A stretch of 64,000 bases of DNA, taken from contig CAZIHJ010000004.1 of assembly GCA_964538485.1 (NCBI GenBank), positions 5,836 to 69,835 on the forward strand, in the 5' to 3' direction. The DNA comes from an uncultured Chitinophagales bacterium. Lineage in GTDB: Bacteria > Bacteroidota > Ignavibacteria > UBA10030 > UBA6906. Under the pieces are notes generated by a model. The model saw only the letters and a program-made list of their open reading frames with translations. It ran no database searches and was not told where the DNA came from. Shown here piece after piece: positions 22,934 to 43,712 of this stretch. The position numbers and the translations under genes were made by a program. How positions within the stretch are numbered: the stretch's first letter is position 1; every line of letters begins with the position of its first letter.

Positions 22934-22972
22934 CAGCCGCAGATTCAAGCAATCTGCGGCTTTGGCTTTCTT
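22934..22972 (+). terminator. Rho-independent terminator after the DM13 gene
   Basis: AGCCGCAGAT-tcaagca-ATCTGCGGCT perfect 10-bp stem, then TTGGCTTTCTTC. Confidence 0.55.
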
Positions 22973-23081
22973 CAATATCTGAGGTATGCCGCTTTGAGAT
23001 GTTTTATTCTCCCATGACCATTTCGTGACTTTTGTTGGCCACATTGTCGACACTTCATTTTTATACTATCTGGAGATTGAC

Positions 23082-24692
23082 ATGAACAACCACTACGACG
23101 TCATCATCATCGGGACAGGTGCGGGCGGAGGAACACTGGCATACGCATTGGCCTCAAGCGGAAAGAAGATCCTCCTCATCGAGCGTGGTGGCTACGTGCC
23201 ACGGGAAAAGGATAATTGGAGTACAAAGGCTGTCAACCAGGATGCGCGGTATAATACGAAGGAAACCTGGCGCGACAAGGATGGCAGGACGCTGCATCCA
23301 CACACGAATTACTACGTCGGTGGAAACACCAAGTTCTATGGCGCGGCGTTGTTTCGTTTGCGTGAAGAGGATTTTGGAGAAGTGAAGCACCATGGTGGCG
23401 TCTCCCCCTCCTGGCCAATTCCCTACAAAGAAATGGAGCCGTACTACACGCAAGCTGAAGAGCTGTATCATGTACATGGTGAACGCGGGGTTGACCCTAC
23501 AGACCCCTGGGCGAGTGCACCCTATCCGTACGCGGCAGTGAGTCACGAACCCCGAATGCAACAGCTTAGTGATGACTGGAAGAAGCTCGGACTCAACCCG
23601 TTTCACGTACCTCTCGGTATCATGCTTGATGAGAAGAATACGCAGAAGAGTCCTTGCATTCGCTGTAACACATGCGATGGCCATCCGTGTTTGATCTACG
23701 CCAAATCCGACGCACAGGTTCTCTGTGTCGATCCGGCCCTGCAATATCAGAATGTTACGTTGCTGACCAATGCACTCGTGAAGAAGCTCGAGACAAACGA
23801 CTCGGGTACCGAAGTAACCAGTGTTGTGGTGGAAATCGCCGGGATGACCTCAAAGTATTCGGGCGACATCGTTGTGTCCTCTGCCGGTGCAATCAATTCT
23901 GCAGCATTGCTTCTGCGCTCTGCAAACACCAAGCACCCTTACGGTCTGGCTAATGGTTCAGGCGTCGTTGGACGATACTACATGGGACATGTCAACTCAG
24001 TATTGATGGCTATTGCGAAGTGTCCAAACCCTACAATTTTTCAGAAAACTCTGGCTCTTAACGATTTCTATTTTGGGTCGAACGAGTGGCAGCACCCGAT
24101 GGGGCATATTTCGTTCGTTGGTAAACTGGACAAGGACACTCTAAAAGCAGGTGCACCGGCAATTGCTCCTGGATTCGTGCTCGAAACAATGGCTGAGCAC
24201 TCGCTCGACTTCTGGCTGACGTCAGAGGACTTGCCTGATCCGAATAATCGTGTGTCTCTTGATCGTGAGGGGAACATCGTTCTGACTTACACACCGAATA
24301 ATGAAGAAGGCCATAAGCGTCTTACGGCCAAGCTGAAAGAAATTATGAAGCAACAGAGAGCCTGCCCGGTTCATGGAAACGAATGTCACCAGGGATTATT
24401 TGCCCGCAATCTCTACGCCGGTCAGCGCATTCCGTTGGCCGGAGTCGCACACCAGAACGGCACGATCCGTTTCGGTAATGATCCGAAAACATCAGCTCTC
24501 GACCCGAACTGCAAAGCGCACGAATTGGACAACCTCTACGTCGTGGATGCGAGTTTCTTTCCATCGAGTGGGGCCGTGAACCCGGCACTCACGATCATGG
24601 CGAACGCGTTGCGGGTGGCGGAGCATTTGAAGGAACGGATGGGTGTGCGTGAGGCATCGAGGAAGCCTGAGCCCGCAACAGTGATGGCCTGA
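23082..24692 (+). CDS. GMC family oxidoreductase
   Basis: Start at MNNHYDVIIIGTGAGGGTLAYALA (FAD Rossmann). C-terminal GMC_oxred_C region ...HELDNLYVVDASFFPSSGAVNPALTIMANALRVAEH. The antisense 196-aa ORF is rejected. Confidence 0.8.
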   Translation: MNNHYDVIIIGTGAGGGTLAYALASSGKKILLIERGGYVPREKDNWSTKAVNQDARYNTKETWRDKDGRTLHPHTNYYVGGNTKFYGAALFRLREEDFGEVKHHGGVSPSWPIPYKEMEPYYTQAEELYHVHGERGVDPTDPWASAPYPYAAVSHEPRMQQLSDDWKKLGLNPFHVPLGIMLDEKNTQKSPCIRCNTCDGHPCLIYAKSDAQVLCVDPALQYQNVTLLTNALVKKLETNDSGTEVTSVVVEIAGMTSKYSGDIVVSSAGAINSAALLLRSANTKHPYGLANGSGVVGRYYMGHVNSVLMAIAKCPNPTIFQKTLALNDFYFGSNEWQHPMGHISFVGKLDKDTLKAGAPAIAPGFVLETMAEHSLDFWLTSEDLPDPNNRVSLDREGNIVLTYTPNNEEGHKRLTAKLKEIMKQQRACPVHGNECHQGLFARNLYAGQRIPLAGVAHQNGTIRFGNDPKTSALDPNCKAHELDNLYVVDASFFPSSGAVNPALTIMANALRVAEHLKERMGVREASRKPEPATVMA

Positions 24693-24749
24693 CGAATCAC
24701 AGGACGGATCGCCGCCCGCCTGACCGGACGGGGAGGAATCGTCCCATGC

Positions 24750-25343
24750 ATGAATTCCAAGAAGAACAAGCCCATGGAAACAACAAGATCTCTCTTCATC
24801 CCCGTTATTCTTGGCACGCCACGCCAGGGACGAATGAGTGAGCATGTGGCAACGCTCCTCATCTCCGAGGTCGCCAAATTTCCGGGCGTGGAGACCGAAT
24901 TGATCGACGTGAGGAATATACCATTGACCGTGAACGGAGCAGGTGAGGACATCAAGGATCCTCAATTCTCTGCCCAGTGCAATCGAGCCGATGCGTTCAT
25001 CATCATCGCACCAGAGTACAACCACGGCTATCCCGGATTGCTGAAGCACGTCCTCGATACGAATCTGAAAGAATATATCCACAAGGCAGTCGGTATCGTC
25101 GGGGTGTCGGCGGGACCATTTGGAGGCACGCGTGTTGTGCAAAACCTTCTGCCGGTCATGCGAGAGCTTGGCTTGGTGACGATCTTTTGGGATGGCAACT
25201 TTTCCCAGGTGCAGAAGGCATTCGACGCATCCGGAAAGCTCCTCGATCAGGCATATCCGCGACGGCTGGAGAAGTTCATCAAGGAGTTGATCTGGATGGG
25301 AACAGTGTTGCGGTACGGGCGGGAGACTGTATCAATCCAGTAG
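24750..25343 (+). CDS. NADPH-dependent FMN reductase family (flavodoxin-like fold)
   Basis: 197 aa. LFIPVILGTPRQGRMSEHVATLL...FIIIAPEYNHGYPGLLKHVLD is the NADPH-dependent FMN reductase (PF03358) pattern. Confidence 0.7.
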   Translation: MNSKKNKPMETTRSLFIPVILGTPRQGRMSEHVATLLISEVAKFPGVETELIDVRNIPLTVNGAGEDIKDPQFSAQCNRADAFIIIAPEYNHGYPGLLKHVLDTNLKEYIHKAVGIVGVSAGPFGGTRVVQNLLPVMRELGLVTIFWDGNFSQVQKAFDASGKLLDQAYPRRLEKFIKELIWMGTVLRYGRETVSIQ

Positions 25344-25405
25344 GAAAGAAAACCACAGAGACCTGCCTGCCGAACGGCAGGTACAAAGACAGAGAACAAG
25401 ATGTC

Positions 25406-25594
25406 ATGAAGACTCACAGACCGAAAATGAAATGCCCTGACTGCGGCATCGATATGAACCAACACGCCGAGAAAATCGACTACACTGCAGCCCCGCGTGA
25501 TCCACAATCGGTTGATCCTGTCCTCGGAGGAGTTATCGAAGAATTCCACTCCTGCCCGAAATGCGGCGGCAGTGCTTCACGAAGAGGAAACTGA
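25406..25594 (+). CDS. Small zinc-ribbon protein (62 aa)
   Basis: MKTHRPKMKCPDCGIDMNQHAEKID...FHSCPKCGGSASRRGN contains two CPxCG knuckles. Sub-ORF of listed ORF 24977..25594. Weak RBS. Confidence 0.35.
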   Translation: MKTHRPKMKCPDCGIDMNQHAEKIDYTAAPRDPQSVDPVLGGVIEEFHSCPKCGGSASRRGN

Positions 25595-25596
25595 CT

Positions 25597-25896
25597 GTGA
25601 TCGCCACAAAAACTGAAGCAGTAGATCTGCTTACACAGCTTTTCCGGGAGACCGGCAGTGCACACCACAAAGCGTTCTCTGCAACCAATGGCGATGACCC
25701 CGAGTGGGCTATCTGGTACGCGAAATTCCTGCAGCCGAAGTTGAACGTTCTGTTTTCCACCCAATATACCAAAAGTCAGATCTTGCATCTGCTCCTCCAA
25801 GCGGAAAGGAACCGGTCCGCCATTACACCAAACCCGGGTTGGCCGGAGTTCTATGCCCGGCTGTTTATCAAAGAACTCGATTCTTCCCACAAATAG
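25597..25896 (+). CDS. Hypothetical protein (~100 aa), GTG start
   Basis: GTG at 25597 immediately after the preceding TGA: VIATKTEAVDLLTQLFRETGSAHHKAFSATNGDDPEWAIWYAKFL... No family assigned. Confidence 0.35.
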   Translation: MIATKTEAVDLLTQLFRETGSAHHKAFSATNGDDPEWAIWYAKFLQPKLNVLFSTQYTKSQILHLLLQAERNRSAITPNPGWPEFYARLFIKELDSSHK

Positions 25897-25989
25897 TCTC
25901 TGCTACCAAATCCTCCATTGCCACGACATTGTTTTGTGAGAACTATCGGTTATCTTCCTCGGAACACCATCACTAGACGGAGAAACGAA

Positions 25990-27000
25990 ATGCAAAGATC
26001 CATTCTTCACCGTTTCATCATCCTGATTTCACTCGTCCTGGTCTTTGGGCAGGTGTCCGCGCAAGCCGTCATTGAGGTTGACGCCATTGGCATGACAGTG
26101 AGCGATATGGACCGGGCTATTGACTTCTACTCTAAGGTGTTGACATTTGAGAGAGTATCCGATGTGGAAGTTTGGGGAGATCAGTACGAGCACCTTCAGG
26201 GACTCTTCGGTCTGCGTATGCGTGTCGTTCGAATGCGTCTCGCTGACGAAACCATCGAGCTGACGGAGTATCTTGCACCCAAGGGACGCCCCTTCCCGAT
26301 TGATACCAAGAGCAACGATCACTGGTTCCAGCATATTGCCATCGTCGTCAGTGATATGGACAAAGCATACGCGCGGCTCCGGGAGTTCAAAGTACAGCAT
26401 GCTTCCTCCGGGCCTCAGCGAATACCTGATTGGAACAAAGGAGCGGCAGGCATTAAGGCATTTTATTTCAGGGATCCTGATGGGCACTATCTCGAAGTCA
26501 TCCACTTCCCTTCCGGGAAAGGCGATCCGAAGTGGCAGGATGCCAACGGCAAGCTCTTCCTCGGCATTGACCACACGGCCATTGTCATTGCCAGCACAGA
26601 CGAGAGCCTGAAGTTTTATCGGGATGAGCTTGGATTGAAAGTCGCAGGCGAAAGCGAGAACTATGGAACTGAACAGGAACACTTGAACAACGTCTTCGGC
26701 GCTCGACTTCTTATCACCGGGTTGCGCGCAGCCCGGGGCCCGGGAATCGAGTTCCTTGAATATCTCACACCAAGCGGCGGTCGCCCTACACCGGAAGATA
26801 TCAAGTCCAGCGACATTGCCCACTGGCAAACACGATTGGTTGTAAAAGACATGAACAGCGCATGGTCTGCAGTTCGTAAATCAAACGGGACGCTCGTCTC
26901 ACCCGGCCCGGTTGGCTTTCCTGAGTCGAGGCTCGGGTTCTCACAGGGGTTGCTAGTGCGCGATCCCGACGGTCACGCAATGCTGTTAACTCAACCATAA
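25990..27000 (+). CDS. Exported protein with two VOC (glyoxalase/bleomycin-resistance/dioxygenase) domains
   Basis: Start at MQRSILHRFIILISLVLVFGQVSAQA (GGAG RBS). Two repeats of the VOC beta-alpha-beta-beta-beta module (..IGMTVSDMDRAIDFY.. and ..IDHTAIVIASTDESLKFY..). The antisense 266-aa ORF 26029..26829 is rejected. Confidence 0.7.
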   Translation: MQRSILHRFIILISLVLVFGQVSAQAVIEVDAIGMTVSDMDRAIDFYSKVLTFERVSDVEVWGDQYEHLQGLFGLRMRVVRMRLADETIELTEYLAPKGRPFPIDTKSNDHWFQHIAIVVSDMDKAYARLREFKVQHASSGPQRIPDWNKGAAGIKAFYFRDPDGHYLEVIHFPSGKGDPKWQDANGKLFLGIDHTAIVIASTDESLKFYRDELGLKVAGESENYGTEQEHLNNVFGARLLITGLRAARGPGIEFLEYLTPSGGRPTPEDIKSSDIAHWQTRLVVKDMNSAWSAVRKSNGTLVSPGPVGFPESRLGFSQGLLVRDPDGHAMLLTQP

Positions 27001-27025
27001 CACAACCTACTTCAAGGATCGAATT

Positions 27026-27496
27026 ATGCTGACTTCAAAGACTGTTGCAGGATTTCTCCTTACGGCGGTATTCATGTTTTCCAATGTCATGCCGGACGCT
27101 ACGGCGTCCGCAGGCATTGATCCGGTGAACAAGGGTGAGGATGGAGAAGCAATACACGGCTACGACGCTGTTGCATACTTTACTGAAGGCAAGCCTGTTC
27201 GCGGAGATGAAGCCTATGCACACGAGTGGATGGGCGCCACGTGGTATTTCTCAAGCGATGCAAACAAGGTATTGTTCATCAAAGAGCCGAACAAGTACAC
27301 GCCGCAGTACGGCGGCTATTGTGCGTATGCAGTCGGCAACAACTATACAGCGAATGGCGATCCGATTGCCTGGTCCATTGTTGACAACAAACTCTATCTC
27401 AACTACAACAAGAAAGTCAGAGAGATGTGGTCGAAGGACAAGTCTGACCTCATCAGGAAGGGAGATGCCAATTGGCCGGGGTTGCTCAAGAGATGA
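27026..27496 (+). CDS. YHS domain protein (exported)
   Basis: 156 aa with signal peptide. HGYDAVAYFTEGKPVRG...YGGYCAYAVGNNYTANGDP fits the YHS (PF04945) pattern. Confidence 0.7.
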   Translation: MLTSKTVAGFLLTAVFMFSNVMPDATASAGIDPVNKGEDGEAIHGYDAVAYFTEGKPVRGDEAYAHEWMGATWYFSSDANKVLFIKEPNKYTPQYGGYCAYAVGNNYTANGDPIAWSIVDNKLYLNYNKKVREMWSKDKSDLIRKGDANWPGLLKR

Positions 27497-29106
27497 TCGG
27501 CCTGGAGAAAAGTCACAGCCCGATGCTGGATACTCACCATACCTCCGAGAAACCGGCATGTCCACTCTGCGGTGAACGTGTCCGAGCTTTGATAAATGAT
27601 CACCCGGGCGTTGAAGGAACCAGTGCATGTGCGCGGTGCGTCGATCATTTGGATGCATCCACATTTGTGCGAAGCGGCCATATCCCGCCAGCCTTGCTTG
27701 CCAGAATCAGCAACAACCCGCTTGTGCTTCCGACGCCCCTCCGGTTGAACGCGAACCCGGACTATACCGGCAAGGGAATATCAATATGTCTCATCGACAG
27801 CGGTTTCTATCCTCACCCCGATCTCATTCAACCATTCAACAGGATCGCATGCTCGGTCGATATCGCCGCGGGCCAAAGCACCCATGACGACAGATGGCAC
27901 GGCACGATGACGTCGGTTGTCTGTGCGGGAAATGGGTTTCTCTCTCAAGGACTCTACAGCGGGATCGCGTCTGAAGCACAGCTCGTTCTGCTGAACGTCA
28001 AGGATGAGAACGGGATCGCGGGTGTAAACATAGCCAAGGCGATTCGATGGGCAATCGAGAACAGGGAGAATTACAACATCCGCATCATCAACCTTTCCGT
28101 TACCGATGATGAACCAACATCCTACAAACAGAGCGAAGTGGATCAGGCCGCAGAGGATGCCGTCAAGGTCGGAATTGTTGTCGTTGCCGCAGTGGGGAAC
28201 GATCCAACGCAGCCCGTGAAGCCGCCCGCGAACTCGCCGGGCGTCATCGCAATAGGCGGGGTTGATGACCACAACACACTCGGCATGACCGCTCCCTCGA
28301 TCTATCACTCTACATTCGGGGTAACCGTCGATCAGTTTCTGAAACCTGAGCTGATCGCTCCGAGCATCTGGCTTGCTGCACCAATCCTTCCGATGACGGG
28401 AGAGCATCGCGAAGCGAGTGCACTTTATAGCATTGTTCAGGCCGAAGACCGCCATCTGAAGAGCATTCTGGCGAAGAACATTGAGAATGCAAACGTTCCT
28501 GCGTCCTTGCTCCAGGAAGAGTCGCTTGAAACAATCCGGACGATTGTAAGGAGTCGGTTGGCTGATTTGAAGTATATCTCAGCTGACTACATGCATGCCG
28601 ACGGCACATCCTTCGCAGCGCCGATCGTCTGTGCAATCATCGCCCAGATGCTTGAGGCGAATCCACATTTGACTCCTGCGGCAATCAGGAATATTCTTCT
28701 AACGACGGCGAAGAAACTGAATCATGTTCCTGTTGAGCGACAAGGGCACGGCGTGATTGATGCCAGGGCTGCCGTAACGGCCAGTCTCGCAGAGAGAAAC
28801 ACCATGCATTACGACTACCCAAGCACCCCTGTCATCAATGCTCTCGTTCAAAAGATCACATTCTACTACCATGATGATTCAGCATACAGCATTGCCCTCG
28901 TTGGTTCGTTTAACAATTGGACCACGACGTTACTCCTCACACGAAACGGCACTGGTATCTGGAAGGTGGAGATCCCAATGCTTCCCAAGGGGACGTATTT
29001 GTACAAATTCCTTGTCAATAATAGAGTATGGGTTGATGACCCGGAGAATCTGTACCGCGAACCGGACGGGTTCAATGGATTGAACAGCAGATTCACTATA
29101 GAATGA
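27493..29106 (+). CDS. S8 subtilisin-like serine peptidase with N-terminal Cys4 zinc-ribbon-like motif and C-terminal CBM48/AMPK-beta glycogen-binding domain; no signal peptide
   Basis: First ATG MIGLEK overlaps the upstream stop (ATGA). Catalytic triad blocks ICLIDSGF (Asp), HGTMTSVVCAGNG (His) and GTSFAAPIVCAIIAQ (Ser). N-terminal CPLCGERV...CARCVD. C-terminal ITFYYHDDSAYSIALVGSFNNWT...GIWKVEIPMLPKGTYLYKFLVNNRVWVDDPEN matches the AMPK1_CBM signature. Confidence 0.75.
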   Translation: MIGLEKSHSPMLDTHHTSEKPACPLCGERVRALINDHPGVEGTSACARCVDHLDASTFVRSGHIPPALLARISNNPLVLPTPLRLNANPDYTGKGISICLIDSGFYPHPDLIQPFNRIACSVDIAAGQSTHDDRWHGTMTSVVCAGNGFLSQGLYSGIASEAQLVLLNVKDENGIAGVNIAKAIRWAIENRENYNIRIINLSVTDDEPTSYKQSEVDQAAEDAVKVGIVVVAAVGNDPTQPVKPPANSPGVIAIGGVDDHNTLGMTAPSIYHSTFGVTVDQFLKPELIAPSIWLAAPILPMTGEHREASALYSIVQAEDRHLKSILAKNIENANVPASLLQEESLETIRTIVRSRLADLKYISADYMHADGTSFAAPIVCAIIAQMLEANPHLTPAAIRNILLTTAKKLNHVPVERQGHGVIDARAAVTASLAERNTMHYDYPSTPVINALVQKITFYYHDDSAYSIALVGSFNNWTTTLLLTRNGTGIWKVEIPMLPKGTYLYKFLVNNRVWVDDPENLYREPDGFNGLNSRFTIE

Positions 29107-29130
29107 AGTGGTGAACTCGGGAGAATGAGA

Positions 29131-29700
29131 ATGATCAAGTCAGTAATATTTAGTCTTGAAGGAGCACTTGTAAGAACTGAGGACCTGAAGTCGTTGGATG
29201 AAGAGCTAATTGAGACTCTCAACGTTCCTGAACGATATGCATGTCCTTACAGCATCGGGTTGTTGGCATATGCGAAGCGCGAGGACTTCCGCGTTGGGAT
29301 CACTACGATATCAGATCGTCGTCAGGCGTGCTGTGTACTCGAAGCTCTTGGATTGGAGAATACATTCGATGTCATAGCAACGTGTGAGGATGTTGTAGAA
29401 GGGGGGTCTGATCCCGGGATCTACGCCCGTATCGGTCATGACCTTGGAGTAAAGCCTGAGGAATCGCTCGTTATTGAAGGCTCGGTCCATGGAATTAAAG
29501 CGGCACTGAAGACCGGCATGCCATGCATCGCCAAAACCTCGAACATCACCAGGCAGGCCATCCATGAAAGTGGGCTGATCGAAAAGCAGTGGATTATCGA
29601 TGATCCGGCCCTGCTGATAACCGTTGCCCGACAGCGGATAGCCGAAGCCAGATTGTCCGATCTTGTTCTCCGGTTTTCGATCCGTTCAGCCTCGACGTGA
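29131..29700 (+). CDS. HAD-superfamily-like protein with degenerate catalytic motifs
   Basis: Start at MIKSVIFSLEGALV (GGAGA RBS). Motif I reads FSLEG instead of DxDGT. Motif IV reads IEGSVHGIKAALKTGM instead of GDSxxD. Rossmannoid HAD fold otherwise. Confidence 0.55.
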   Translation: MIKSVIFSLEGALVRTEDLKSLDEELIETLNVPERYACPYSIGLLAYAKREDFRVGITTISDRRQACCVLEALGLENTFDVIATCEDVVEGGSDPGIYARIGHDLGVKPEESLVIEGSVHGIKAALKTGMPCIAKTSNITRQAIHESGLIEKQWIIDDPALLITVARQRIAEARLSDLVLRFSIRSAST

Positions 29701-29774
29701 CCAAAACGTGATACTCCCCTGAGCATCAGAGGACCGTTGAGTGCTACCTTTACACCACACTATTTGGAGTTTCT

Positions 29775-32456
29775 ATGAATGCTGAAAAGAAGCGCGTCCT
29801 TGAGGTCCGACATCATTCAACTCCCTGGAAGAAATGGGGTCCCTACCTCACCGAGCGTCAATGGGGTACAGTTCGCGAAGACTACAGTCCCGGCGGAACT
29901 GCGTGGGAACACGTTTCTCATGATGCGGCGCGGAGCAAAGCATATCGTTGGGGCGAAGAAGGCATTGCCGGGATCTCCGATGACAATCAGCATCTCTGTT
30001 TCTCCATTGCACTTTGGAACGGTCGCGACCCCATCCTCAAAGAACGTCTCTTCGGACTGACGGGGAACGAAGGCAATCATGGTGAGGACGTGAAGGAAAT
30101 CTACTACTACCTCGATAGCACCCCCACTCACTCATACATGAAAATGCTCTACAAGTACCCTCAGGCAGCGTTCCCTTACTCACGCCTTGTGGAAGAAAAC
30201 CGGAAGCGCGGCAAGGATGAGCCCGAGTTCGAGCTTGTTGACACCGGGATTTTTGATGATGATCGTTATTTCGATGTCTTCGTTGAATACGCCAAGACAT
30301 CGCCCGAAGACCTGCTTGCAAGAATCACTATCGTTAATCGCGGACCAGATGAAGCATCCTTGAATGTTCTCCCTCAAGTATGGCTGCGAAACACGTGGTC
30401 ACCCGGTTTGGAGAAATCCAAACCAGTCATGTTTGCAATCGACGAGAATACCATTCAGATTGAGCATCATGGCAAACAACAGTGGGTCTACTTTGAAGGT
30501 GTGGAACAATTACTCTTCTGTGAGAACGAAACAAATTTGCAACGCCTCTACGGCGTGAACGGAACGACGGGTTTCTTTAAGGACGGTATCAACGATTACG
30601 TTGTGAATGGAGCGACAACTGCGGTCAATCCCGGGCAACGGGGAACGAAAGCAGCAGCGAACTACATGATCAGCATACCCCCTGGCGGATCGGTCTCCCT
30701 TCGGATTCGCATCTGCGACGCAATGACCGGGAACCCATTTGTTGGATTCGACAAGTTGTTCGCGACGAGGCAGAAGGAAGCTGATGAATTCTATGACGAG
30801 CTCCAATCGGGCATGACGAGCGTCGATGCAAAGAACGTCCAGCGACAAGCATTTGCCGGGATGCTCTGGTCGAAGCAATACTACTACTATGATATCCCAC
30901 AGTGGTTAAATGGAGATCCCGGTCAACCTCCCCCACCCGCGAACCGAAAGAGCGGCCGCAACAGTGACTGGCTTCATCTCAACAATGCCGACATCATTTC
31001 GATGCCCGACAAGTGGGAGTATCCGTGGTATGCCGCGTGGGACCTCGCGTTTCACACAATCCCGTTGGCGATGGTCGACCCTGACTTTGCAAAGGATCAG
31101 CTTGTCCTCCTGACAAAGGAGTGGTATATGCACCCCAACGGGCAACTCCCTGCATACGAATGGGCGTTCGGGGATGTGAATCCGCCTGTTCATGCGTGGG
31201 CGACGTGGCGTGTGTATAAAATTGATCAGAAAATGAATGACGGCAGGGGTGATGCCGATTTCCTTGAGAGAGTCTTCCACAAGCTTCTCCTCAACTTCAC
31301 CTGGTGGGTCAACCGCAAAGACACAGAAGGGCACAACATCTTCCAGGGTGGCTTCCTGGGATTGGATAATATTGGAGTGTTTGATCGAAGCGCGCCGCTC
31401 CCCACGGGCGGGCACATCGAACAAGCGGATGGTACAAGCTGGATGGCGATGTACTCACTCAATCTCATGCGTATCTCCCTTGAGCTCGCCACAACCAAAC
31501 CGATCTATCAGGATATGGCCACAAAGTTTTTTGAGCACTTTATGTACATTGCTGGTGCCATGGCAAACGTCGGCGGCAGTGGGATCGATCTTTGGGATAA
31601 GGAAGACGAATTCTTCTACGATGTTCTGCATCTGCCCAATGGAGAACGGACACCTCTCAAAGTGAGATCCATGGTGGGACTGATTCCATTTTACGCGGTT
31701 GAAACCCTTGAACCGGAATTACTGGAGAAGGTGCCGGAATTCAAGAGGCATATGGAGTGGTTTCTGAACTACCGTCCCGACCTTGCAAACCTTGTTTCCC
31801 GATGGAATGAACCAGGCATGGGCGAGCGACGATTACTATCGTTGCTGCGTGGTCATCGCATGAAGAAGTTGCTCACGCGGATGCTCGATGAAACCGAGTT
31901 TCTGTCGGACTATGGTGTGAGGGCTCTCTCGAGATATCACAAAGATCACCCGTATGAATTCCATGTCAACGGAAACACGTTTACGGTGAACTACACGCCT
32001 GCGGAATCCAATACGGGATTGTTCGGGGGCAACTCCAACTGGCGGGGACCAATCTGGTTTCCTGTGAACTTCCTTCTGATCGAGTCACTGCAAAAGTTCC
32101 ATCACTACTACGGGGACGATTTTAAGATTGAATGTCCGACGGGCTCCGGCAAGTACTTGACAATCAATGACGTGGCTGACGAGCTTTCAAAGCGGCTAAC
32201 GAGAACATTCCTGCTTGACAGTGATGGAAAGCGGCCGGCATTGGGCTATAGTAAAAAGATGCAAACTGACCCCCACTTCCGGGACTACCTGCTCTTCCAC
32301 GAGTATTTCGACGGGGATTCCGGAAGAGGCGTTGGTGCGTCCCATCAAACCGGTTGGACGGGTGTAGTTGCAAAGTTGTTGCAGCCTCGCACAAAAGAAG
32401 TCCGCCAAGAATCCAAAGCTGAAACCAAGACATTCACGAAGGAGATTACTGTATGA
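29775..32456 (+). CDS. GH63-family glycoside hydrolase (MGH1-like glucosidase / mannosyl- or glucosyl-glycerate hydrolase-like)
   Basis: 893 aa. (alpha/alpha)6 barrel region with [30 protein letters not shown], typical of bacterial GH63. The overall length fits the ~890-aa bacterial glucosidase family. Confidence 0.65.
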
Positions 32457-33604
32457 AAGCAATCTGCGTCATTCCCGGAAGACCAAATTCAGTCCATTTA
32501 AGAGATGTCCCAAAACCCAATGTTATAGACATTCCCAACGGCCGGGGTGTATTGGTGAAAATTCTGCGTGTCGGCGTCGATGGAACGGACAAAGAAATCA
32601 ATGCCGCGGAATACGGGGCCGCACCTCCGGGTGACGAATACCTTACTCTCGGGCACGAATCATTTGGAGTTGTTGAAGAGGTCGGAGAAAATGTGACCGA
32701 ATTCAAGCGAGGCGATTACGTCGTTGCTACGGTCCGTCGTCCCGGTGGATCATTCTATGACACGATCGGCACGTATGACATGACCACTGACGATACCTAC
32801 TACGAGCGTGGAATCAACCTCCGCCACGGCTATCTGGCGGAGTACTACGTCGACGATCCCGAGTACATCGTGAAAGTACCAAAGGGATTGAAAGACATCG
32901 GCGTGTTGCTCGAACCGATGAGCGTTGCAGAGAAGGGAATCATTCAGGCCTATGAAATTCAACGTCGTCTCAAAGTGTGGAGACCAAAAAAGGCGGCGGT
33001 GATGGGTGCCGGAACACTGGGCCTGCTGGCGACCATGATTCTCCGGTTGCGCGGACTGGAGGTTGTCACATTCGGCCGGAAGCCTGCCCCGTATCTCAAC
33101 TCTTCTTTAGCTGAAGAACTCGGGGGACGCTACGTTTCAACGGTAGGCTTGAGTATCAAGGATGCCTCAGAAATGTATGGCCCTTTCGACATCATCTTTG
33201 AAGGCACGGGGAGTTCCGCTGTGGTATTTGAGGCCGCACAGGCTCTCGCCAAGAACGGTGTGTTGATCCTTGCCAGCATCACCGGCGCCGGAAAAAAGCT
33301 TGAGATTCCCGCCGACAAGATCAACCTTGACTTCGTCCTTGGAAACAAAGTCATGTTCGGAACAGTCAATGCCAACAGGGAGTATTTCGAAGCAGGTGCG
33401 AAGGACCTGGCGCAATGCAATGCGGAGTTCCCGGGTTTTGCGCGGAAGTTGCTCACCCACCCGGTGCAGGGCCTCGACAACTTCCAGAAAATGATGAACC
33501 TGCTGACGACCGAAAAGAATGCGATCAAAGTATATGTTGAGGTTGCCTCTGATGTACAGGCAAACGAACACACTGAATATCAAATGGAGATGGCCGTCAA
33601 CTGA
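32453..33604 (+). CDS. Glucose 1-dehydrogenase, archaeal-type MDR (zinc-dependent alcohol dehydrogenase superfamily)
   Basis: 383 aa. [22 protein letters not shown]...[13 protein letters not shown]...[25 protein letters not shown] aligns with Sulfolobus/Thermoplasma glucose dehydrogenase landmarks (WWYDDPKYLVKIPK). 4-nt overlap with the upstream gene. Confidence 0.7.
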
Positions 33605-33632
33605 TTCTCTTATCCGACTATTGAGAGCGCAA

Positions 33633-35696
33633 ATGAAAATCTCATTCGACAAATCCGTAACACAGAACTTTGAAGAGGCAATTCGTCGTGAGTGGCTGGA
33701 GACCAACGGACTCGGCGGCTGGGCAAGCTCAACGATTTCCGGGGCACACTCAAGACGATATCATGGTCTTCTCGTGGCTGCAACCAAGCCCCCTGTCGGT
33801 CGCATGGTGATGCTCTCAAAACTGGATGAGACGATTGAGATCGATGGGAAACGCTATGACCTGAGTACGAATCGTTATCCGGGTGTGGTCCATCCCAGAG
33901 GGTTTGAGTTCCTTCAGACATTTGAGAAGGATATCTTCCCTCAGTTCGAGTTCGAAGCCGGCAGGGTTTACGTTCGAAAAACAATCGTAGCAATCAATGG
34001 AGAAAATACAACCGTAATCCTGTATGAGGTGTTGGAAGCTCCTACCGGGTTCACACTTGAGCTTCAGCCCTTCATGGCCCCCCGTGATTATCACAGCATG
34101 TCCCATGCAAATGACGCAATCCACCGGAGTGCAGAGTTTCACAATGGGATCTTTCGAGTAAGGGCATATGACGGCGTGCCGGAGCTGTTCATTAGCGTCC
34201 CGGGCGCGGCGTTTGAATCAGCGCCGGCCTGGTACAACAATTTCGAGTATGGGGCTGAACAATATCGCGGTCTTGATTTCACTGAAGACTTGTTCACGCA
34301 TGGAGTCTTCAAGCGAACGCTGCGCAAGGGTGACACATTAGGAGTGATCGTCTCCATTGATCCGGTCGAAGGACGGGACGCATTTCAACTTGTCCGTTTT
34401 GAGCAGCAGCGACGTATGAAGTTGCTCGATGCTCTTCCGGAACGGGATCACTTCACGGAAACACTTGCCCTGGCCGCCGATCAGTTCATCGTACAGCGGG
34501 GAGAAGATCTCCAGACTCTCATCGCAGGGTATCATTGGTTCTCCGATTGGGGGCGCGACACGATGATTGCCCTTCCCGGAATTTGTCTCGTGACAGGAAG
34601 GTACGGCGAGGCAAAGAAAATTCTCCGGGCATTTGCGCAGAGCGTCAGTCAGGGTATGCTGCCAAATCGCTTCCCCGATGCTGGCGAGCAGCCTGAGTAC
34701 AACACGGTCGATGCTACGCTTTGGTTCTTCGTCGCGATCTACAAGTACCTACAGTATACCAACGATGAAATAGTGGTGCGAAATGAGCTCATGCCGGTGC
34801 TGCGGGACATCATACGCTGGCACGATCACGGAACGCGATACAACATTCATGTCGATACCGATGGTTTGCTCCACGCTGGCGAGCCAGGAGTTCAGCTTAC
34901 ATGGATGGACGCCAAGGTAGGAAATTGGGTTGTAACACCAAGACAAGGAAAGGCCGTCGAGATCAACGCTCTGTGGTATAACGCCATTGCCATTTATGCG
35001 CACCTTGCTGATCGCCTTCGTCTTCCGGATGAGGGGTTTGAGGAACGCTCGGCCAATGTGAAGATCGCATTCCAGCGAACATTCTGGAACGAAAAGGTTG
35101 GCGGGTTGTATGACTTCGTCGACGGCGAATACCGCGACGATGCCATACGGCCAAATCAAATTTTTGCACTCTCTCTCCCATTCCCATTGTTGGCAGGTGG
35201 ACGCGCAGAGAGCATCCTGAACCTTGTTGCTGACAAGCTTTATACGCCTGTGGGCCTACGTAGCCTCTCCCCAGACCATCCGGCATACCGCCTTCACTAT
35301 GGTGGAGATCAACTTATGCGGGATAGTGCCTATCATCAGGGAACCGTATGGAGTTGGCTGCTTGGACCGTATGTGAGCTCAATGGTAAGCGTTAGAGGGG
35401 AGAAAGCAAGAGAGGAGGCGGAAAGAATACTTAAAGGAATTGCTCCTCATTTTTCAGAAGCTGGTATTGGGACAATATCAGAGATTTTCGATGCAACTCA
35501 GCCGCATGCTCCACGAGGGTGTATCGCCCAGGCTTGGAGTGTGGGAGAGATCTTGAGAGCATACATTGAGGATTGTTTTGGAGCAATTCCAGGGAATTCC
35601 ACAACCTCCGCAGACATCAAGGTCGATTCGAGCCAGGATTATGATTCGACCAAACCCGCAACGGGGAATCAAATACTCTCGCTCCAACCCGGCTAG
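33633..35696 (+). CDS. Glycogen debranching enzyme-like protein (GDE N-terminal domain + amylo-alpha-1,6-glucosidase (alpha/alpha)6 barrel)
   Basis: Start at MKISFDKSVTQNFEEAIRREWLETNGLGGWASSTISGAHSRRYHGLL (GDE_N). C-terminal HWFSDWGRDTMIALPGI...GMLPNRFPD is the GDE_C/amylo-1,6-glucosidase signature. Confidence 0.8.
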   Translation: MKISFDKSVTQNFEEAIRREWLETNGLGGWASSTISGAHSRRYHGLLVAATKPPVGRMVMLSKLDETIEIDGKRYDLSTNRYPGVVHPRGFEFLQTFEKDIFPQFEFEAGRVYVRKTIVAINGENTTVILYEVLEAPTGFTLELQPFMAPRDYHSMSHANDAIHRSAEFHNGIFRVRAYDGVPELFISVPGAAFESAPAWYNNFEYGAEQYRGLDFTEDLFTHGVFKRTLRKGDTLGVIVSIDPVEGRDAFQLVRFEQQRRMKLLDALPERDHFTETLALAADQFIVQRGEDLQTLIAGYHWFSDWGRDTMIALPGICLVTGRYGEAKKILRAFAQSVSQGMLPNRFPDAGEQPEYNTVDATLWFFVAIYKYLQYTNDEIVVRNELMPVLRDIIRWHDHGTRYNIHVDTDGLLHAGEPGVQLTWMDAKVGNWVVTPRQGKAVEINALWYNAIAIYAHLADRLRLPDEGFEERSANVKIAFQRTFWNEKVGGLYDFVDGEYRDDAIRPNQIFALSLPFPLLAGGRAESILNLVADKLYTPVGLRSLSPDHPAYRLHYGGDQLMRDSAYHQGTVWSWLLGPYVSSMVSVRGEKAREEAERILKGIAPHFSEAGIGTISEIFDATQPHAPRGCIAQAWSVGEILRAYIEDCFGAIPGNSTTSADIKVDSSQDYDSTKPATGNQILSLQPG

Positions 35697-35772
35697 CCGG
35701 CAAATTCGAATACGCGATGAAGTTGCGCAAAGTGGTCGGGAGAAGTCCCCGCTACAAGTTCTAAAGAAGAAA

Positions 35773-35811
35773 CCCTCACTGGTGAAAGCTGGTGAGGGTT
35801 TTGTTTTTTTT
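35773..35811 (+). terminator. Rho-independent terminator; copy 1 of a repeated 26-nt hairpin element
   Basis: CCCTCACTGGTGAAAGCTGGTGAGGG followed by TTTTGTTTTTTTTT. A near-identical hairpin occurs at 38269..38294. Confidence 0.7.
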
Positions 35812-36916: not shown

Positions 36917-38251
36917 ATGAATGACGGCTGGCTGAAACGCTCGGTGATGTTACGCATGATCATCATTGGATGCCTGACAATTGCAATGCTCGTACCATCT
37001 GTTCTGGTTATGGAACTCGTTTCTGATCGTGAGCAAACACGCGACAAGACAACGGCCGATGTGAGCGAAAAATGGGGAGAGGATCAAACTCTTGCAGGGC
37101 CAATATTGACCGTGCCGTTCAAACGCATGATACGGACTGAAGACGGAAATACACGATTCGTTATTGAACATGCGCAACTGCTACCGGAGAATGTGACATT
37201 TGCAGCAACTGCATCTCCGGAGGTACGGTACAGAGGCATTTATCAAGTGGTCCTGTACAATGCTGTGGTAAATATGCAGGCAACATTCTCACTGGAAGGT
37301 CTTGCCGGAATGAACATTGGTGAGGAGGATGTTCTGTGGGACGAGGCCTCTGCGGCCATTGGTATCAGCGATCTGAAGGGGGTGAAGGAAGCGGTCACAG
37401 TCCAATGGGGCGGCAAAGAGCTTACGGCTGAACCGGGTGTCGGTGCCTGCGATGCATTCCGGTCAGGGATCAACGTCAAACCGACAGTATCGGCAGGGTC
37501 AAAGCAGTACACATTTGCCGCCAGCCTCAATCTTAATGGAAGCAATGAATTGCAATTCGTTCCTACAGGAAAAAAAACACACGTGACCCTGACATCAACA
37601 TGGGAGTCACCAAGTTTCATCGGCCGGTTTCTGCCTGATAAACGGACAGTGCGGGAAGACGGATTCAGTGCGGAGTGGAATGTGTTGCATCTGAACCGAA
37701 ACTTCCCACAACAATGGATCAGCGAACGACAATCAAACGAGAACGCCAGGGTCGAGATCAACCCGTTCTCTTTCGGGGTAAAACTGATCTCGCCCAATGA
37801 CCAGTATCAACAGACAATGCGATCTGCGAAATATGCCATTATGTTCATCGCACTGACGTTTCTCGCCTTCTTCCTGACGGAGGTGCTCAACAAGAAAGTA
37901 GCCCATCCTGTCCAATATGCGCTCATAGGATTTGCCCTCGTGCTGTTCTACTGTCTGCTCCTTTCACTCTCCGAACACATGGCGTTCGCGACTGCCTATG
38001 TGATTTCCAGTGTGGCAATCATTCTCCTGGTTGCAGGGTACGCTCGCAGTGTCTTTGGCAGCTACAGCTTTGCAGCCACAGTTTCCTCTCTCCTTGCGCT
38101 GCTCTACACATTCTTGTTTGTCATTCTGCAGGAAGCGGACTATGCGTTGCTGGTTGGCAGCATCGGCTTATTTGCCGTTCTGGCACTTGTAATGTACTTA
38201 ACGAGAAAGATCGACTGGTACATGATTGGCAAGTCAGAGGATGTTGCGTAG
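36917..38251 (+). CDS. creD: Cell envelope integrity inner-membrane protein CreD
   Basis: 444 aa. TLTSTWESPSFIGRFLPDKRTVREDGFSAEWNV and PNDQYQQTMRSAKYAIMFIALTFLAFFLTEVL align with E. coli CreD (TLTSNWPHPSFLGDFLPAKR...; PADQYQLTDRATKYAILLIALTFMAFF...). Confidence 0.75.
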   Translation: MNDGWLKRSVMLRMIIIGCLTIAMLVPSVLVMELVSDREQTRDKTTADVSEKWGEDQTLAGPILTVPFKRMIRTEDGNTRFVIEHAQLLPENVTFAATASPEVRYRGIYQVVLYNAVVNMQATFSLEGLAGMNIGEEDVLWDEASAAIGISDLKGVKEAVTVQWGGKELTAEPGVGACDAFRSGINVKPTVSAGSKQYTFAASLNLNGSNELQFVPTGKKTHVTLTSTWESPSFIGRFLPDKRTVREDGFSAEWNVLHLNRNFPQQWISERQSNENARVEINPFSFGVKLISPNDQYQQTMRSAKYAIMFIALTFLAFFLTEVLNKKVAHPVQYALIGFALVLFYCLLLSLSEHMAFATAYVISSVAIILLVAGYARSVFGSYSFAATVSSLLALLYTFLFVILQEADYALLVGSIGLFAVLALVMYLTRKIDWYMIGKSEDVA

Positions 38252-38268
38252 TGTTCGGGTGAATAAGA

Positions 38269-38294
38269 CCCTCACCGGTGAAAGCTGGTGAGGG
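38269..38294. repeat. Copy 2 of the 26-nt hairpin element (CCCTCACCGGTGAAAGCTGGTGAGGG), between convergent creD and the S9 peptidase gene
   Basis: Differs from copy 1 (35773-35798) at one position (C vs T). The inner palindrome TCACCGGTGA is perfect. No T-run on either strand. Confidence 0.6.
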
Positions 38295-38361
38295 CCTTGC
38301 CTTTGTCACCCTTCGCGAAAACCGTCCGGTGATTCCCTTCACCCTGATGTGGGCTCGTGAG

Positions 38362-42266: not shown

Positions 42267-43243
42267 CTCATTCCCCTCCCCTCTTCTGGCACCGGTGTTG
42301 CGTGACCGCGGGCCAGGAAGGCATTCACGGCCCGGTCCAGATTTGCCGTACCCCGATTGAGCCTGCGGGCACCCTGCCGCTCGAGCAACACCCCGAAGGC
42401 ATCCTCTTGGTCGAGCACCACAAAGTGGAATAAGCCGTCAATGCGCTGGCACTGTAACACACCGGGGAGTGTGTCAAGTCCGGGTACGGCGGATGGGAAA
42501 TCGGCGATCCACAACTGCACCCGCTCGCAGAATTCGTCTGGCGGCGACATGTGCATCAGCCGGCCCTGCTCAAGGATGATCAGGTTGTCGGCGAGCCTCT
42601 CGATCTCCTCCATCTGATGGGAACAATAGATGATCGTGGTATCGGTGTTTTCCACCGAAGCGAGGACCGTCTCAAGAAAGGCACGTTTGGCCACGACATC
42701 CAGCCCGAGCGTCGGCTCGTCGAGAATCAGCAACTCCGGTTCCTGGGCGAGTGCCATCGCAAGGTTCACACCGGCACGCTCGCCGCGAGAGAGTTCGGCA
42801 ATCCGCTGCCCGGACTGTACATGGAAATGGCCGATGACGCCCCGGTAGCGCTCATCATTCCATTGCGGGTACTGGTGGCGTTGCATCGACACGACTTCGC
42901 CGACACGCAACCAGGAAGGAACGCTGTGTTCCTCGTTGACGAAGCCGATACGTGCACGCTCGTTTTCGGTGAGCGCAGCGCAATCGTGTCCGAGGATCCT
43001 TGCCCTTCCACCGGTGGGCGACTGAAAGCCAAGAAGCACGCGGAATAATGAGGTCTTGCCGGCGCCGTTGGCACCAACGATGGCATGAATCCGGCCGCGC
43101 GGAATGCGTAGAGTCAGTTGGTTCAACGCCCTTTTGCGTCCGTAGTACAGGTCGAGTCGGTCGGTCTCGATCACATAGTCTGATACTTCAGGAGCTGATG
43201 ATACCGCGCTTTTCGGAAGCGCGTAAAGATTGGGGATAGACAT
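42263..43243 (-). CDS. ABC transporter ATP-binding protein
   Basis: Start at MSIPNLYAL (AGGAAC RBS). Walker A GANGAGKTS, signature LSRGERAGV, Walker B LLILDEPT. The ORF upstream of 43243 in the same frame is an N-terminal over-extension. Confidence 0.85.
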   Translation of the reverse strand: MSIPNLYALPKSAVSSAPEVSDYVIETDRLDLYYGRKRALNQLTLRIPRGRIHAIVGANGAGKTSLFRVLLGFQSPTGGRARILGHDCAALTENERARIGFVNEEHSVPSWLRVGEVVSMQRHQYPQWNDERYRGVIGHFHVQSGQRIAELSRGERAGVNLAMALAQEPELLILDEPTLGLDVVAKRAFLETVLASVENTDTTIIYCSHQMEEIERLADNLIILEQGRLMHMSPPDEFCERVQLWIADFPSAVPGLDTLPGVLQCQRIDGLFHFVVLDQEDAFGVLLERQGARRLNRGTANLDRAVNAFLARGHATPVPEEGRGMR

Positions 43244-43251
43244 AGTGTTCC

Positions 43252-43662: not shown

Positions 43663-43670
43663 CGGGTTTC

Positions 43671-43712
43671 CTTGTACCTATTGTACCGGTTATGATGGTA
43701 CAAATGGTACGG
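43671..43712. promoter_or_regulatory. Extended dyad-symmetric operator immediately upstream of the GntR gene start
   Basis: cTTGTACCtaTTGTACCggttatgatGGTACAAatGGTACgg has nested inverted repeats with two GTAC half-sites per arm, in the GT-N-AC style of GntR/YtrA operators. Lies 9-50 nt upstream of the GntR ATG (43662), in the 310-bp divergent region shared with the 43974 outer-membrane protein gene. Confidence 0.6.

Follow-up and report, generated by a model that had tools for sequence, protein, structure and literature searches.

A predicted cytoplasmic subtilase with a putative glycogen-binding CBM48 module in a conserved bacterial gene island

What would a protease that appears to remain inside the cell do with a domain of the type found in the beta subunit of AMPK? 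The question is raised by a subtilase gene of an uncultured Chitinophagales bacterium, located in a 64,000-nucleotide stretch of contig CAZIHJ010000004.1 which was analyzed as a whole and is here called the window. Non-glycosidase enzymes are known to reach alpha-glucan granules via CBM48 or CBM20 modules, as in AMPK, the SEX4 and laforin phosphatases, PTST and Stbd1; to our knowledge all of these are eukaryotic, and no protease was found among them.

The protease gene and its surroundings

The S8-CBM48 protease gene lies within a run of genes on one strand, which were assigned using Pfam, NCBIfam and PDB:

22935-22961 (+): terminator-like hairpin, 11-bp stem and T-rich tail, 5' of the GMC gene; putative operon start
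23025-35696 (+): putative operon of 12.7 kb, one strand, with gaps of less than 75 nt or overlaps
23025/23082-24692 (+): GMC protein, FAD sugar dehydrogenase-like
24750-25343 (+): FMN_red
25406-25594 (+): small Cys4 zinc-ribbon ORF
25561-25896 (+): uncharacterised ORF of 111 aa
25918/25990-27000 (+): secreted tandem VOC protein
27026-27496 (+): YHS-domain protein with signal peptide; its stop overlaps the protease ATG
27493-29106 (+): S8-CBM48 protease, 537 aa plus stop from ATG 27493
29125-29700 (+): HAD-like protein
29775-32456 (+): GH63/MGH1-like protein
32453-33604 (+): glucose dehydrogenase (Glu_dehyd_C)
33519/33633-35696 (+): GDE, debranching enzyme (GDE_N/GDE_C)
35769-35802 (+): terminator-like hairpin after GDE, 15-bp stem followed by GTTTTTTTTG; putative operon end

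The original prediction placed the protease at the head of a sugar-catabolic cluster; it is instead approximately the seventh of 12 genes in the putative operon between the two terminator-like hairpins, and is probably co-transcribed with these genes. The predicted downstream genes (HAD-like, GH63/MGH1-like, Glu_dehyd_C glucose dehydrogenase and GDE_N/GDE_C debranching enzyme) were all confirmed, as was the overlap with the upstream YHS gene, where an ATGA at 27493-27496 joins the YHS stop codon to ATG 27493 of the protease. The same 4-nt overlap occurs in the family loci L005 and L006, and it suggests translational coupling of the two genes. In the ORF listing the protease gene runs from 27472 to 29106 (+) and opens with TTG; this alternative start adds 7 aa with respect to ATG 27493 and has the Shine-Dalgarno-like GGAAGGGAG 7 nt to its 5' side. 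The nearest in-frame stop on the 5' side is a TGA at 27445-27447, 16 codons upstream, so that TTG 27472 and ATG 27493 are the only possible starts.

The operon includes genes for the release or oxidation of glucose (GDE, the GH63-like protein, glucose dehydrogenase and the FAD sugar dehydrogenase-like protein). The debranching enzyme of eukaryotes has a glucosidase domain that is homologous to GDE, and the nearest solved relatives of the GMC protein are FAD glucose and fructose dehydrogenases, while no solved relative of the GH63-like protein was found by sequence. Redox genes are present in the operon and its flanks (MsrA, MsrB, FMN reductase, NDH-2 and ergothioneine-type genes).

The same fusion, as had been proposed for searching, was found in other genomes: over 100 protein clusters have the architecture, which extends to at least 586 species genomes of the Bacteroidota, Ignavibacteriota, Calditrichia, KSB1, Acidobacteriota and Sericytochromatia, and its features are therefore no product of chance. 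Among species-level genomes the window protein has its nearest matches in two MAGs at 53% identity, one of Calditrichia and one of KSB1. The family is common in Bacteroidota and Acidobacteriota of soil, wastewater and sediment, and at least one family genome comes from a cultured organism, Ferruginibacter sp. SUN106, which makes experiments feasible. Database labels for the family are limited to "S8 peptidase" or "AprX", and for this widespread family our literature search found neither a study of the S8-CBM48 architecture nor a description of the conserved gene island around the protease.

The sugar-catabolic character of the cluster holds in part, since 18 of the 41 loci with complete flanks have GDE or GH63 no more than 10 kb from the protease, but the commonest neighbours across 80 species cover a broader range: a MIP channel, a secreted tandem VOC/glyoxalase, the FAD sugar dehydrogenase-like GMC protein, a membrane protein of the Rieske/ferric-reductase type and an SGL lactonase-like protein. 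The most constant neighbours are the aquaporin-type channel, the secreted tandem VOC and the FAD sugar dehydrogenase-like protein; a GMC gene is found within the same 10 kb in 30 of the 41 loci. Across phyla the gene set is retained and its order has changed.

Domain composition of the protease

The following features were mapped on the protease gene:

27559-27639 (+): N-terminal Cys4 module (C23, C26 ... C46, C49), two CxxC knuckles, from alignments
27769-28752 (+): Peptidase_S8 catalytic domain, aa 93-420, Pfam E 3.3e-43
27796-27798 (+): catalytic D102
27898-27900 (+): catalytic H136
28198-28200 (+): oxyanion N236
28384-28578 (+): insertion of about 65 aa, aa 298-362, four predicted helices, AF2 model
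28609-28611 (+): catalytic S373
28828-29103 (+): AMPK-beta-type CBM48, aa 446-537, Pfam and profile match
28918-28920 (+): W476, putative glucan contact
29005-29007 (+): K505, putative glucan contact
29029-29031 (+): W513, putative glucan contact
29083-29085 (+): N531, putative glucan contact

The match to PF00082 reaches 148.5 bits (cut-off 21.8) and covers profile positions 1-288 of 288. The catalytic triad is intact, as predicted: D102, H136 and S373 together with the oxyanion N236, which sit in DSG, HGT, GTS and GN motifs, respectively, are identical in all 89 family sequences of the alignment, drawn from six lineages, from which the conservation counts were taken. The AF2 model of the protease (pLDDT 85.6) has the subtilisin alpha/beta fold, with a Foldseek probability of 1.00 to Tk-SP, subtilisin BPN' and savinase and a target-normalised TM-score of about 0.8. 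The protein is thus predicted to be a catalytically competent subtilase. Assignment to the mycosins, the proteases of type VII secretion, was rejected (NCBIfam TIGR03921, 121.1 bits, cut-off 278.75), and so was assignment to PatA/PatG, CspBA or the anti-phage peptidase IteS, each with an NCBIfam score below threshold.

The helical insertion, which is specific to the family, comes just ahead of the catalytic serine. It separates the IWLAAP strand from the YMHADGTSFAAP serine motif, and by our own sequence comparison its position is that of the subtilisin loop 209-214. Its AF2 helices span residues 303-315, 319-333, 337-341 and 345-358 (pLDDT of the block 85-95); the segment of aa 298-362 is skipped in PDB alignments, and its length differs among family members.

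The closest solved S8 domain is that of Tk-SP of Thermococcus kodakarensis (PDB 3AFG, 9UES; phmmer 7e-30; Foldseek E 1e-22 at 24-25% identity), which in contrast to the protease described here is secreted and has a propeptide (3AFG being the ProN form), and which has neither the Cys4 module nor the 65-aa helical insertion. The C-terminal domain of Tk-SP is a beta-sandwich, a Ca-binding jelly roll, and not a CBM48. The AprX label, which originates from JGI/KEGG, was rejected on the basis of catalytic-residue spacing and architecture (65-aa insertion, CBM48 and Cys4). AprX of Bacillus and Virgibacillus is likewise an intracellular S8 protease with no signal peptide and with an N-terminal extension, which is however non-homologous. 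It is expressed in stationary phase and has a mass of 42-49 kDa (PMC3135529), too small for an extra C-terminal module of the size of CBM48. The spacing between catalytic His and Ser is 189 aa in AprX-SK37 (H178-S367; PMC3135529) versus 237 aa here, meaning that AprX lacks the insertion; it also lacks the Cys4 motif, and the S8 fold and the absence of a signal peptide are the only shared features.

The N-terminal CPLCG...CARC motif of the original prediction corresponds to C23, C26, C46 and C49 and is kept in 67-68 of the 89 family sequences; those without it belong mostly to clades with a different N-terminus, and acidobacterial members have a His-rich N-terminus in its place. The window protein carries a short variant, most members having approximately 20 more residues between the knuckles, including an invariant Trp. 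The module is presumed to be a zinc-binding zinc ribbon. It gave no significant Pfam match when two N-termini and 18 members were scanned and no significant PDB match in a profile search, and a profile search against a set of 5.8 billion proteins likewise brought up nothing beyond zinc-finger noise below threshold and pieces of the same family. We have therefore treated it as a family-specific module with no assigned fold class, which occupies the place taken by the signal peptide and propeptide in secreted subtilisins.

The C-terminal CBM48 module

A C-terminal CBM48 of the AMPK1_CBM kind had been predicted, and both Pfam profiles scored above threshold: PF16561 (AMPK1_CBM) at aa 463-525 with 32.4 bits against a cut-off of 26.8, and PF02922 (CBM_48) at aa 453-511 with 27.8 bits against 22.4. 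The domain has the CBM48 beta-sandwich fold. Fold alone is no proof of glycan binding, since the CBM48 modules appended to CE1 esterases form a subfamily without starch binding and bound none of the glycans tested (PMC8040265). These CE1 feruloyl and acetyl-xylan esterases (wtsFae1A/B, DmCE1B) are secreted, and membership of their non-binding subfamily was rejected for the CBM48 of the protease, in which the canonical residues are kept and the comparison at profile level gives E 6e-6 for the CE1 type versus 2e-9, over the full length, for AMPK beta, i.e., a match about 3000-fold weaker.

The glucan contacts of AMPK beta1 include W100, K126, W133 and N150 (PMC9788615), and PTST no longer binds starch when the two corresponding Trp are mutated (PMC4339375). 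The original prediction looked to carbohydrate-binding Trp and Lys residues in this domain, and W476, W513 and K505 are indeed present; in the alignment W100, K126, W133 and N150 correspond to W476, K505, W513 and N531. Within the family the first three of these are identical in all 89 sequences and N531 in 88 of 89, across six lineages, in a domain with a mean pairwise identity of 45%. The 11 near-invariant columns out of 92 include four of the six contact positions (hypergeometric P = 0.0016). Outside the family, the nearest relatives of the module by sequence come as tandem AMPK1_CBM/CBM48 arrays, and GH13 alpha-amylases carry some of these arrays. We infer that the module binds intracellular alpha-glucan, i.e., glycogen or its oligosaccharides.

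The AMPK beta module (PDB 1Z0M/1Z0N, 2F15, 4Y0G) belongs to the same Pfam family and has GSFNNW, YKF and W-x-DP motifs in common with the CBM48 of the protease, in which the loop carrying the equivalents of L146 and T148 is two residues longer (DGFxGxNS). In AMPK this type of module ties a cytoplasmic regulatory enzyme to glycogen or senses glycogen, and by analogy the same is predicted here, although module and subtilase share one polypeptide here and no kinase complex is involved. In plants CBM48 proteins such as PTST and the glucan phosphatases SEX4 and LSF1 bring an activity to starch, but these are eukaryotic plastid proteins which deliver a phosphatase or a scaffold and not a protease.

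Cellular location and proposed role

The protease is predicted to be cytoplasmic, with no export signal of any kind. A signal peptide is absent, as the original prediction held: given the TGA at 27445-27447 the protein can be extended by at most 7 residues, and the N-terminus has no hydrophobic core, with a maximum 10-aa Kyte-Doolittle mean of 0.8-1.0 compared to 2.4 for the YHS and 3.5 for the VOC neighbour, both of which have signal peptides. No hydrophobic N-terminal stretch was found in 87 of the 89 family sequences, the exceptions (L034 and L041) being due to the upstream ATG chosen for them in our analysis; family N-termini are non-hydrophobic and begin a few residues ahead of the first CxxC. 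A Cys4 zinc site is itself an argument for the cytoplasm. The contrary possibility, that the protease is secreted or surface-bound and binds extracellular starch, its export signal having been missed through a wrong start codon or in the form of a type IX C-terminal domain, could draw on the finding of near sequence relatives of the module in signal-peptide proteins and on the probable presence of type IX-type cargo in this organism, where a 1476-aa SBBP-repeat protein has a C-terminal FlgD_ig-like match that we read as a type IX tail. However, no type IX secretion C-terminal domain or other export-related family was among the NCBIfam matches of the protease, its C-terminus is the CBM48, and the family is also present in Acidobacteriota and Sericytochromatia; we regard secretion, as type IX cargo or otherwise, as highly improbable.

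For a cytoplasmic enzyme we lean modestly towards a subtilase that is tethered to glycogen, or gated by it, through the CBM48 module. As an anchor, the module would hold the protease on glycogen granules, where granule-associated proteins would be cut; as a gate, glycogen occupancy would hold or gate the protease. The removal of a protein primer, put forward in the original prediction, would be a purely hypothetical activity. Its action would most likely be timed to the mobilisation of stored carbohydrate, under stress or in stationary phase, as the presumed co-transcription with glucose-releasing or glucose-oxidising genes and with redox and stress genes suggests. It is unlikely, in our judgement, that the domain instead binds no glycan and has a structural role or helps to shape the cleft, in which case the protein would be an ordinary stress protease of the cell interior, unconnected with glycogen. 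The C-terminal beta-jelly-roll domain of Tk-SP and the CBM48 modules of CE1 esterases are models for such a role, but the greater closeness to AMPK beta at profile level, the retention of all four putative contacts across six lineages and the relationship to CBM arrays on GH13 amylases argue against it.

Another alternative, to which we would give a similarly small chance, is that the module is a sensor and not an anchor, glucan occupancy switching the protease off when reserves are present and on when they are exhausted, or the reverse, with possible redox control added by the Cys4 module. In AMPK, the kinase is inhibited allosterically when glycogen or beta-cyclodextrin occupies the module of the beta subunit, and this inhibition is reported to be lost on W100/W133 mutation (PMC9788615). 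The conserved glucan contacts and the redox genes of the operon and its flanks are consistent with sensing, and in the AF2 model the module is packed rigidly on the S8 domain (pTM 0.86), which together with the helical insertion before the catalytic serine could provide a plausible route of transmission. The basis for this alternative is however the analogy with AMPK, and the lack of Cys4 in acidobacterial members means that any Cys-based redox control would not be family-wide. A full bacterial counterpart of AMPK glycogen sensing, in which CBM48 occupancy and perhaps the redox state of Cys4 would gate the cytoplasmic subtilase, appears more doubtful still. If it were true, bulk or targeted protein degradation would follow the state of the carbon reserve and oxidative stress, with the protease in a cross-phylum stress island (MIP, secreted VOC, FAD sugar dehydrogenase-like protein, SGL, Rieske/ferric reductase and GDE).

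If glycogen binding of the tethered or gated subtilase is confirmed, the family would provide the first case of a protease that carries a module dedicated to glycogen binding, and a case of a bacterial AMPK-beta-type module outside carbohydrate enzymes. It would open the questions of the protein complement of bacterial glycogen granules and its turnover, and of whether the status of the reserve controls proteolysis. The S8-CBM48 family may thus link protein breakdown to the sugar reserve of the cell.

Architecture, start codon and family of the S8-CBM48 protease

The protease ORF is listed from a TTG start, and from the downstream ATG its product is 537 aa long.

27472..29106 (+), ORF of the S8-CBM48 protease, TTG start
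27493-29106 (+), the same ORF from the ATG
27445-27447, TGA, nearest upstream in-frame stop

The position of this stop limits the start to one of the two codons; an SD-like GGAAGGGAG lies 7 nt 5' of the TTG, and the ATG shares an ATGA with the stop codon of the YHS gene, the overlap described in the original prediction. With neither start is there a hydrophobic N-terminus (maximum 10-residue Kyte-Doolittle mean 0.8-1.0); the YHS and tandem VOC proteins encoded upstream reach 2.4 and 3.5 and both have signal peptides. The in-frame TGA and the non-hydrophobic N-termini bear out the claimed lack of a signal peptide, and Sec export of the protease is impossible. The subtilase is intact, as had been stated, with D102, H136 and S373 of the triad and also N236 identical in 89/89 aligned sequences. 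The proposed Pfam search matched Peptidase_S8 (aa 93-420, 3.3e-43), AMPK1_CBM (aa 463-525, 32.4 bits against a cut-off of 26.8) and CBM_48 (aa 453-511, 27.8 bits against 22.4). The factual statements of the original prediction all hold.

Among solved structures the catalytic domain comes closest to Tk-SP, a Thermococcus protease (phmmer 7e-30; Foldseek 1e-22). In the confident AF2 model (pLDDT 85.6, pTM 0.86, 26 input sequences) about 65 residues, aa 298-362, form four helices after the IWLAAP strand and before the YMHADGTSFAAP serine motif, a segment which PDB alignments skip. By sequence comparison this insertion would take the place of loop 209-214 of subtilisin BPN', which lies close to the prime side of the substrate cleft. 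Immediately ahead of the Pfam S8 domain, the stretch LPTPLRLNA resembles the start of mature subtilisin, VPYGVSQIKA; if it is a mature-type N-terminus, an I9-type propeptide would be absent and the Cys4 module would occupy that place. Neither mycosin nor AprX fits the protease. The best NCBIfam model was mycosin, yet its score of 121 bits falls below the cut-off of 279, so the protease is not a mycosin; and the His-Ser spacing of 237 aa differs from the 189 aa (H178, S367) of AprX-SK37, AprX proteins being of 42-49 kDa (PMC3135529).

Searching 5.8 billion proteins with the protease returned 5287 matches at E <= 1e-5. The best 120 of these share 45-82% identity over >84% of the length, almost all are annotated with S8 plus AMPK1_CBM/CBM_48, and the only names they bear in the databases, which list the family under generic names, are "S8 family serine peptidase" and "serine protease AprX". 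The fusion is thus widely present in other genomes: when one genome was scanned for each species, at least 586 were seen to encode a relative, and the best 80 of them belong to Chitinophagaceae, Saprospiraceae, other Bacteroidota, Ignavibacteriota, Calditrichia, KSB1, Pyrinomonadaceae and Blastocatellia (Acidobacteriota), and Sericytochromatia. Across the 89 aligned sequences conservation reaches at least 98% at 67 positions. A literature search found no publication on this architecture.

The N-terminus takes several forms. Most members carry CPxC...CxRC, the two halves separated by about 36 aa that include an invariant Trp; in the clade of the window protease the same four Cys are kept, in line with the Cys4 motif originally noticed, and about 20 residues between them are missing. 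Two Sericytochromatia members (L063, L082) have an extension of about 100 aa. Acidobacterial members are without the Cys4 and start with HDHxH, a His-rich stretch that may be a different metal site; the loci concerned (L065-L067, L070-L075, L078-L081, L083, L085, L087 and L088, from Acidobacteriota and allied loci) include one reading HDHSH...NRFAVIPT. The Cys4 module, which probably binds zinc, matched nothing significant outside the family in Pfam, PDB or a large protein set.

Ligand type of the C-terminal CBM48

The C-terminal domain matches the feruloyl esterase wtsFae1B, DmCE1B, trehalohydrolases, pullulanases, branching enzymes, isoamylase and TreX, as well as AMPK beta2 (9.8), SEX4 (9.6) and SIP2 (9.0). 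Its top match belongs to the CE1-appended CBM48 subfamily, which is reported to lack starch binding, the modules of DmCE1A and DmCE1B having bound 0/11 polysaccharides (PMC8040265). The fold alone is therefore insufficient to fix the ligand, and the module could be a non-binding structural appendage as in the CE1 esterases. Three tests argue against this main rival and point to a glucan-binding type. A profile built from 27 domains of the family hits the modules of AMPK beta1 and beta2 (positions 21-94 of 95, E 2e-9 to 5e-8) and the CBM48 of a Thermococcus pullulanase (7e-10), and the CE1 type at only 6e-6. In this alignment W476, K505, W513, F527, G529 and N531 align with W100, K126, W133, L146, T148 and N150 of AMPK beta1, which hold beta-cyclodextrin (PMC9788615), and mutation of the two equivalent Trp in PTST abolishes starch binding (PMC4339375). 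W476, K505 and W513 are identical in 89/89 sequences and N531 in 88/89, in a domain of 45% mean pairwise identity; four of the six contact positions are among the 11 near-invariant columns out of 92 (P = 0.0016). Lastly, HMMER, run exhaustively with the domain, gave 5074 representatives at E <= 0.001, and the best matches outside the family were tandem arrays of 2 to 18 AMPK1_CBM/CBM48 copies, with GH13 alpha-amylase catalytic domains in two of ten scanned and a signal-peptide-like start in three of four multi-copy proteins inspected in full. The module has the fold, profile and contact residues of a glycogen-binding CBM48, as predicted from its signature, rather than a generic Ig/E-set fold devoid of carbohydrate-binding residues. 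We consider a non-binding appendage unlikely.

Many of the tandem AMPK-beta-like proteins matched in the domain search (P0139-P0287) are of about 480 aa with four copies, and one carries RHS repeats.

Genomic neighbourhood

Between 11928 and 35696 every gene is on the + strand, in the following order.

first group: MIP channel, HbpS-like+cupin, SGL, Big_2+DM13, uncharacterised protein, SGL
second group: MsrA, MsrB, NDH-2, spondin-like protein, DM13
22935-22961 (+), terminator-like hairpin before the GMC gene
third group: GMC oxidoreductase (23025-24692, +), FMN reductase, small Cys4 ORF (25406-25594, +), uncharacterised protein
fourth group: secreted tandem VOC, secreted YHS, S8-CBM48 protease
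last group: HAD-like (29125-29700, +), GH63/MGH1-like, glucose dehydrogenase, GDE
35769-35802 (+), terminator-like hairpin after GDE

From GMC to GDE the genes overlap or are separated by <75 nt, and with the bracketing hairpins we infer a putative 12.7-kb operon, co-transcribed. The genes following the protease are those originally named, and the protease gene would sit in mid-operon rather than at the head of the cluster. Among solved structures, the GMC protein is most closely related to FAD glucose dehydrogenase (6A2U, 1e-32) and fructose dehydrogenase, in each case to the catalytic subunit; these enzymes hold an Fe-S cluster, and the GMC protein has a Cys-rich motif, CIRCNTCDGHPC, at about aa 211-222. 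GDE hits both the archaeal-type GDE model and, in eukaryotic glycogen debranching enzyme, the glucosidase domain. In the HAD-like protein motif I is degenerate (FSLEGA against the expected DxDG, both catalytic Asp replaced) and motif IV looks altered, and the protein may be a pseudo-phosphatase; its gene, missing from the otherwise syntenic L004 and L005, turned up in 1/88 loci (L046). The 62 aa ORF between the FMN reductase and 111-aa genes has its own Cys4, CPDCG...CPKCG, echoing the CPLCG of the protease, and in L004, L005 and L006 the corresponding position is taken by a similarly sized ORF whose zinc-ribbon Pfam matches are faint.

The neighbourhood is kept in other genomes with changes in gene order, the one-strand island of about 24 kb recurring, shuffled, in several phyla (also L001, L002, L004, L005, L007, L008 and L009-L088).

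Gene families near the protease gene. Percentages: homologue of a window gene within 10 kb, 41 species loci flanked by at least 8 kb to either side. Fractions: loci per family, unsupervised clustering of all ORFs of 80 loci, many with incomplete flanks.
GMC oxidoreductase: 73%; 40/80
Tandem VOC: 71%; 43/80
YHS: 37%
GDE: 34%; 15/80
GH63: 27%; 13/80
GDE or GH63: 44%
MIP channel: 44/80
Ferric-reductase/Rieske membrane protein: 35/80
SGL: 34/80
Uncharacterised protein, about 145 aa: 34/80
Uncharacterised protein, about 284 aa: 33/80
DUF1622: 25/80
HbpS-like: 25/80
Tandem YHS: 24/80
ECF sigma factor: 14/80

These counts make the protease a constant member of a multi-phylum island, on which a literature search found no paper. 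The island centres on the oxidation of sugars or polyols and on redox stress, with glycogen/glucoside hydrolases frequent and not universal. The description as a sugar-catabolic cluster stands in part: GDE or GH63 occurs in 44% of the 41 loci, but MIP, VOC, GMC, Rieske and SGL are commoner.

Several flanking genes were also recorded.

6663-8950, OmpR-type response regulator and histidine kinase, after the next pair
8965-11370 (-), Methyltransf_33 (histidine-specific methyltransferase) gene adjoining a DinB_2+FGE-sulfatase gene, immediately upstream of the island; the two resemble an ergothioneine pair of the EgtD/EgtB type
38000-44000, G+C 0.56-0.58 against about 0.51 elsewhere, possibly acquired DNA; three minus-strand genes (S9 peptidase/esterase, uncharacterised 605-aa protein, ABC ATPase)
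48674-50812 (-), polyphosphate kinase 1, a second reserve-polymer gene close by, within 10-20 kb of the protease gene here and in the Ignavibacteria loci L002, L003 and L008
53519-56790, ABC_tran, ABC-2 membrane and ABC_transp_aux domain genes, adjoining the next gene
58519-62949 (-), 1476-aa SBBP beta-propeller-repeat protein; its C-terminal FlgD_ig-like match is likely a type IX secretion tail, which together with the ABC genes beside it hints at an FCB-group organism

Proposed role

The protease gene lies alongside those of glucose-releasing and glucose-oxidising enzymes, and the cytoplasmic ligands of its CBM48 would most likely be glycogen and its oligosaccharides. We lean towards a protease that glycogen either tethers or regulates; any specific substrate is proposed with much less confidence, and the protein-primer removal originally suggested is neither backed nor contradicted by the analysis. 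The CBM48 would place the protease on glycogen, or glycogen occupancy would control it; a sensor of this latter kind, differing from an anchor in its consequences only, seems to us a minority prospect. That the protease is secreted is highly improbable: among the family N-termini examined there was no credible signal peptide, L034 and L041 having been flagged through the choice of an upstream ATG.

A glycogen-tethered or glycogen-regulated protease would act during reserve mobilisation, under stress or in stationary phase, on granule-bound proteins or, after release, on bulk protein. Folding, autoinhibition or redox control are conceivable roles of the Cys4 module, and the helical insertion may limit access to the cleft. 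Intracellular subtilases are known (AprX, the Bacillus intracellular subtilisins), as is CBM48 targeting of non-glycosidase enzymes in eukaryotes (AMPK, SEX4, LSF1, PTST). The family, which joins a subtilase with a CBM48, a Cys4 module and the insertion, represents not a new category but a new variation on known kinds.
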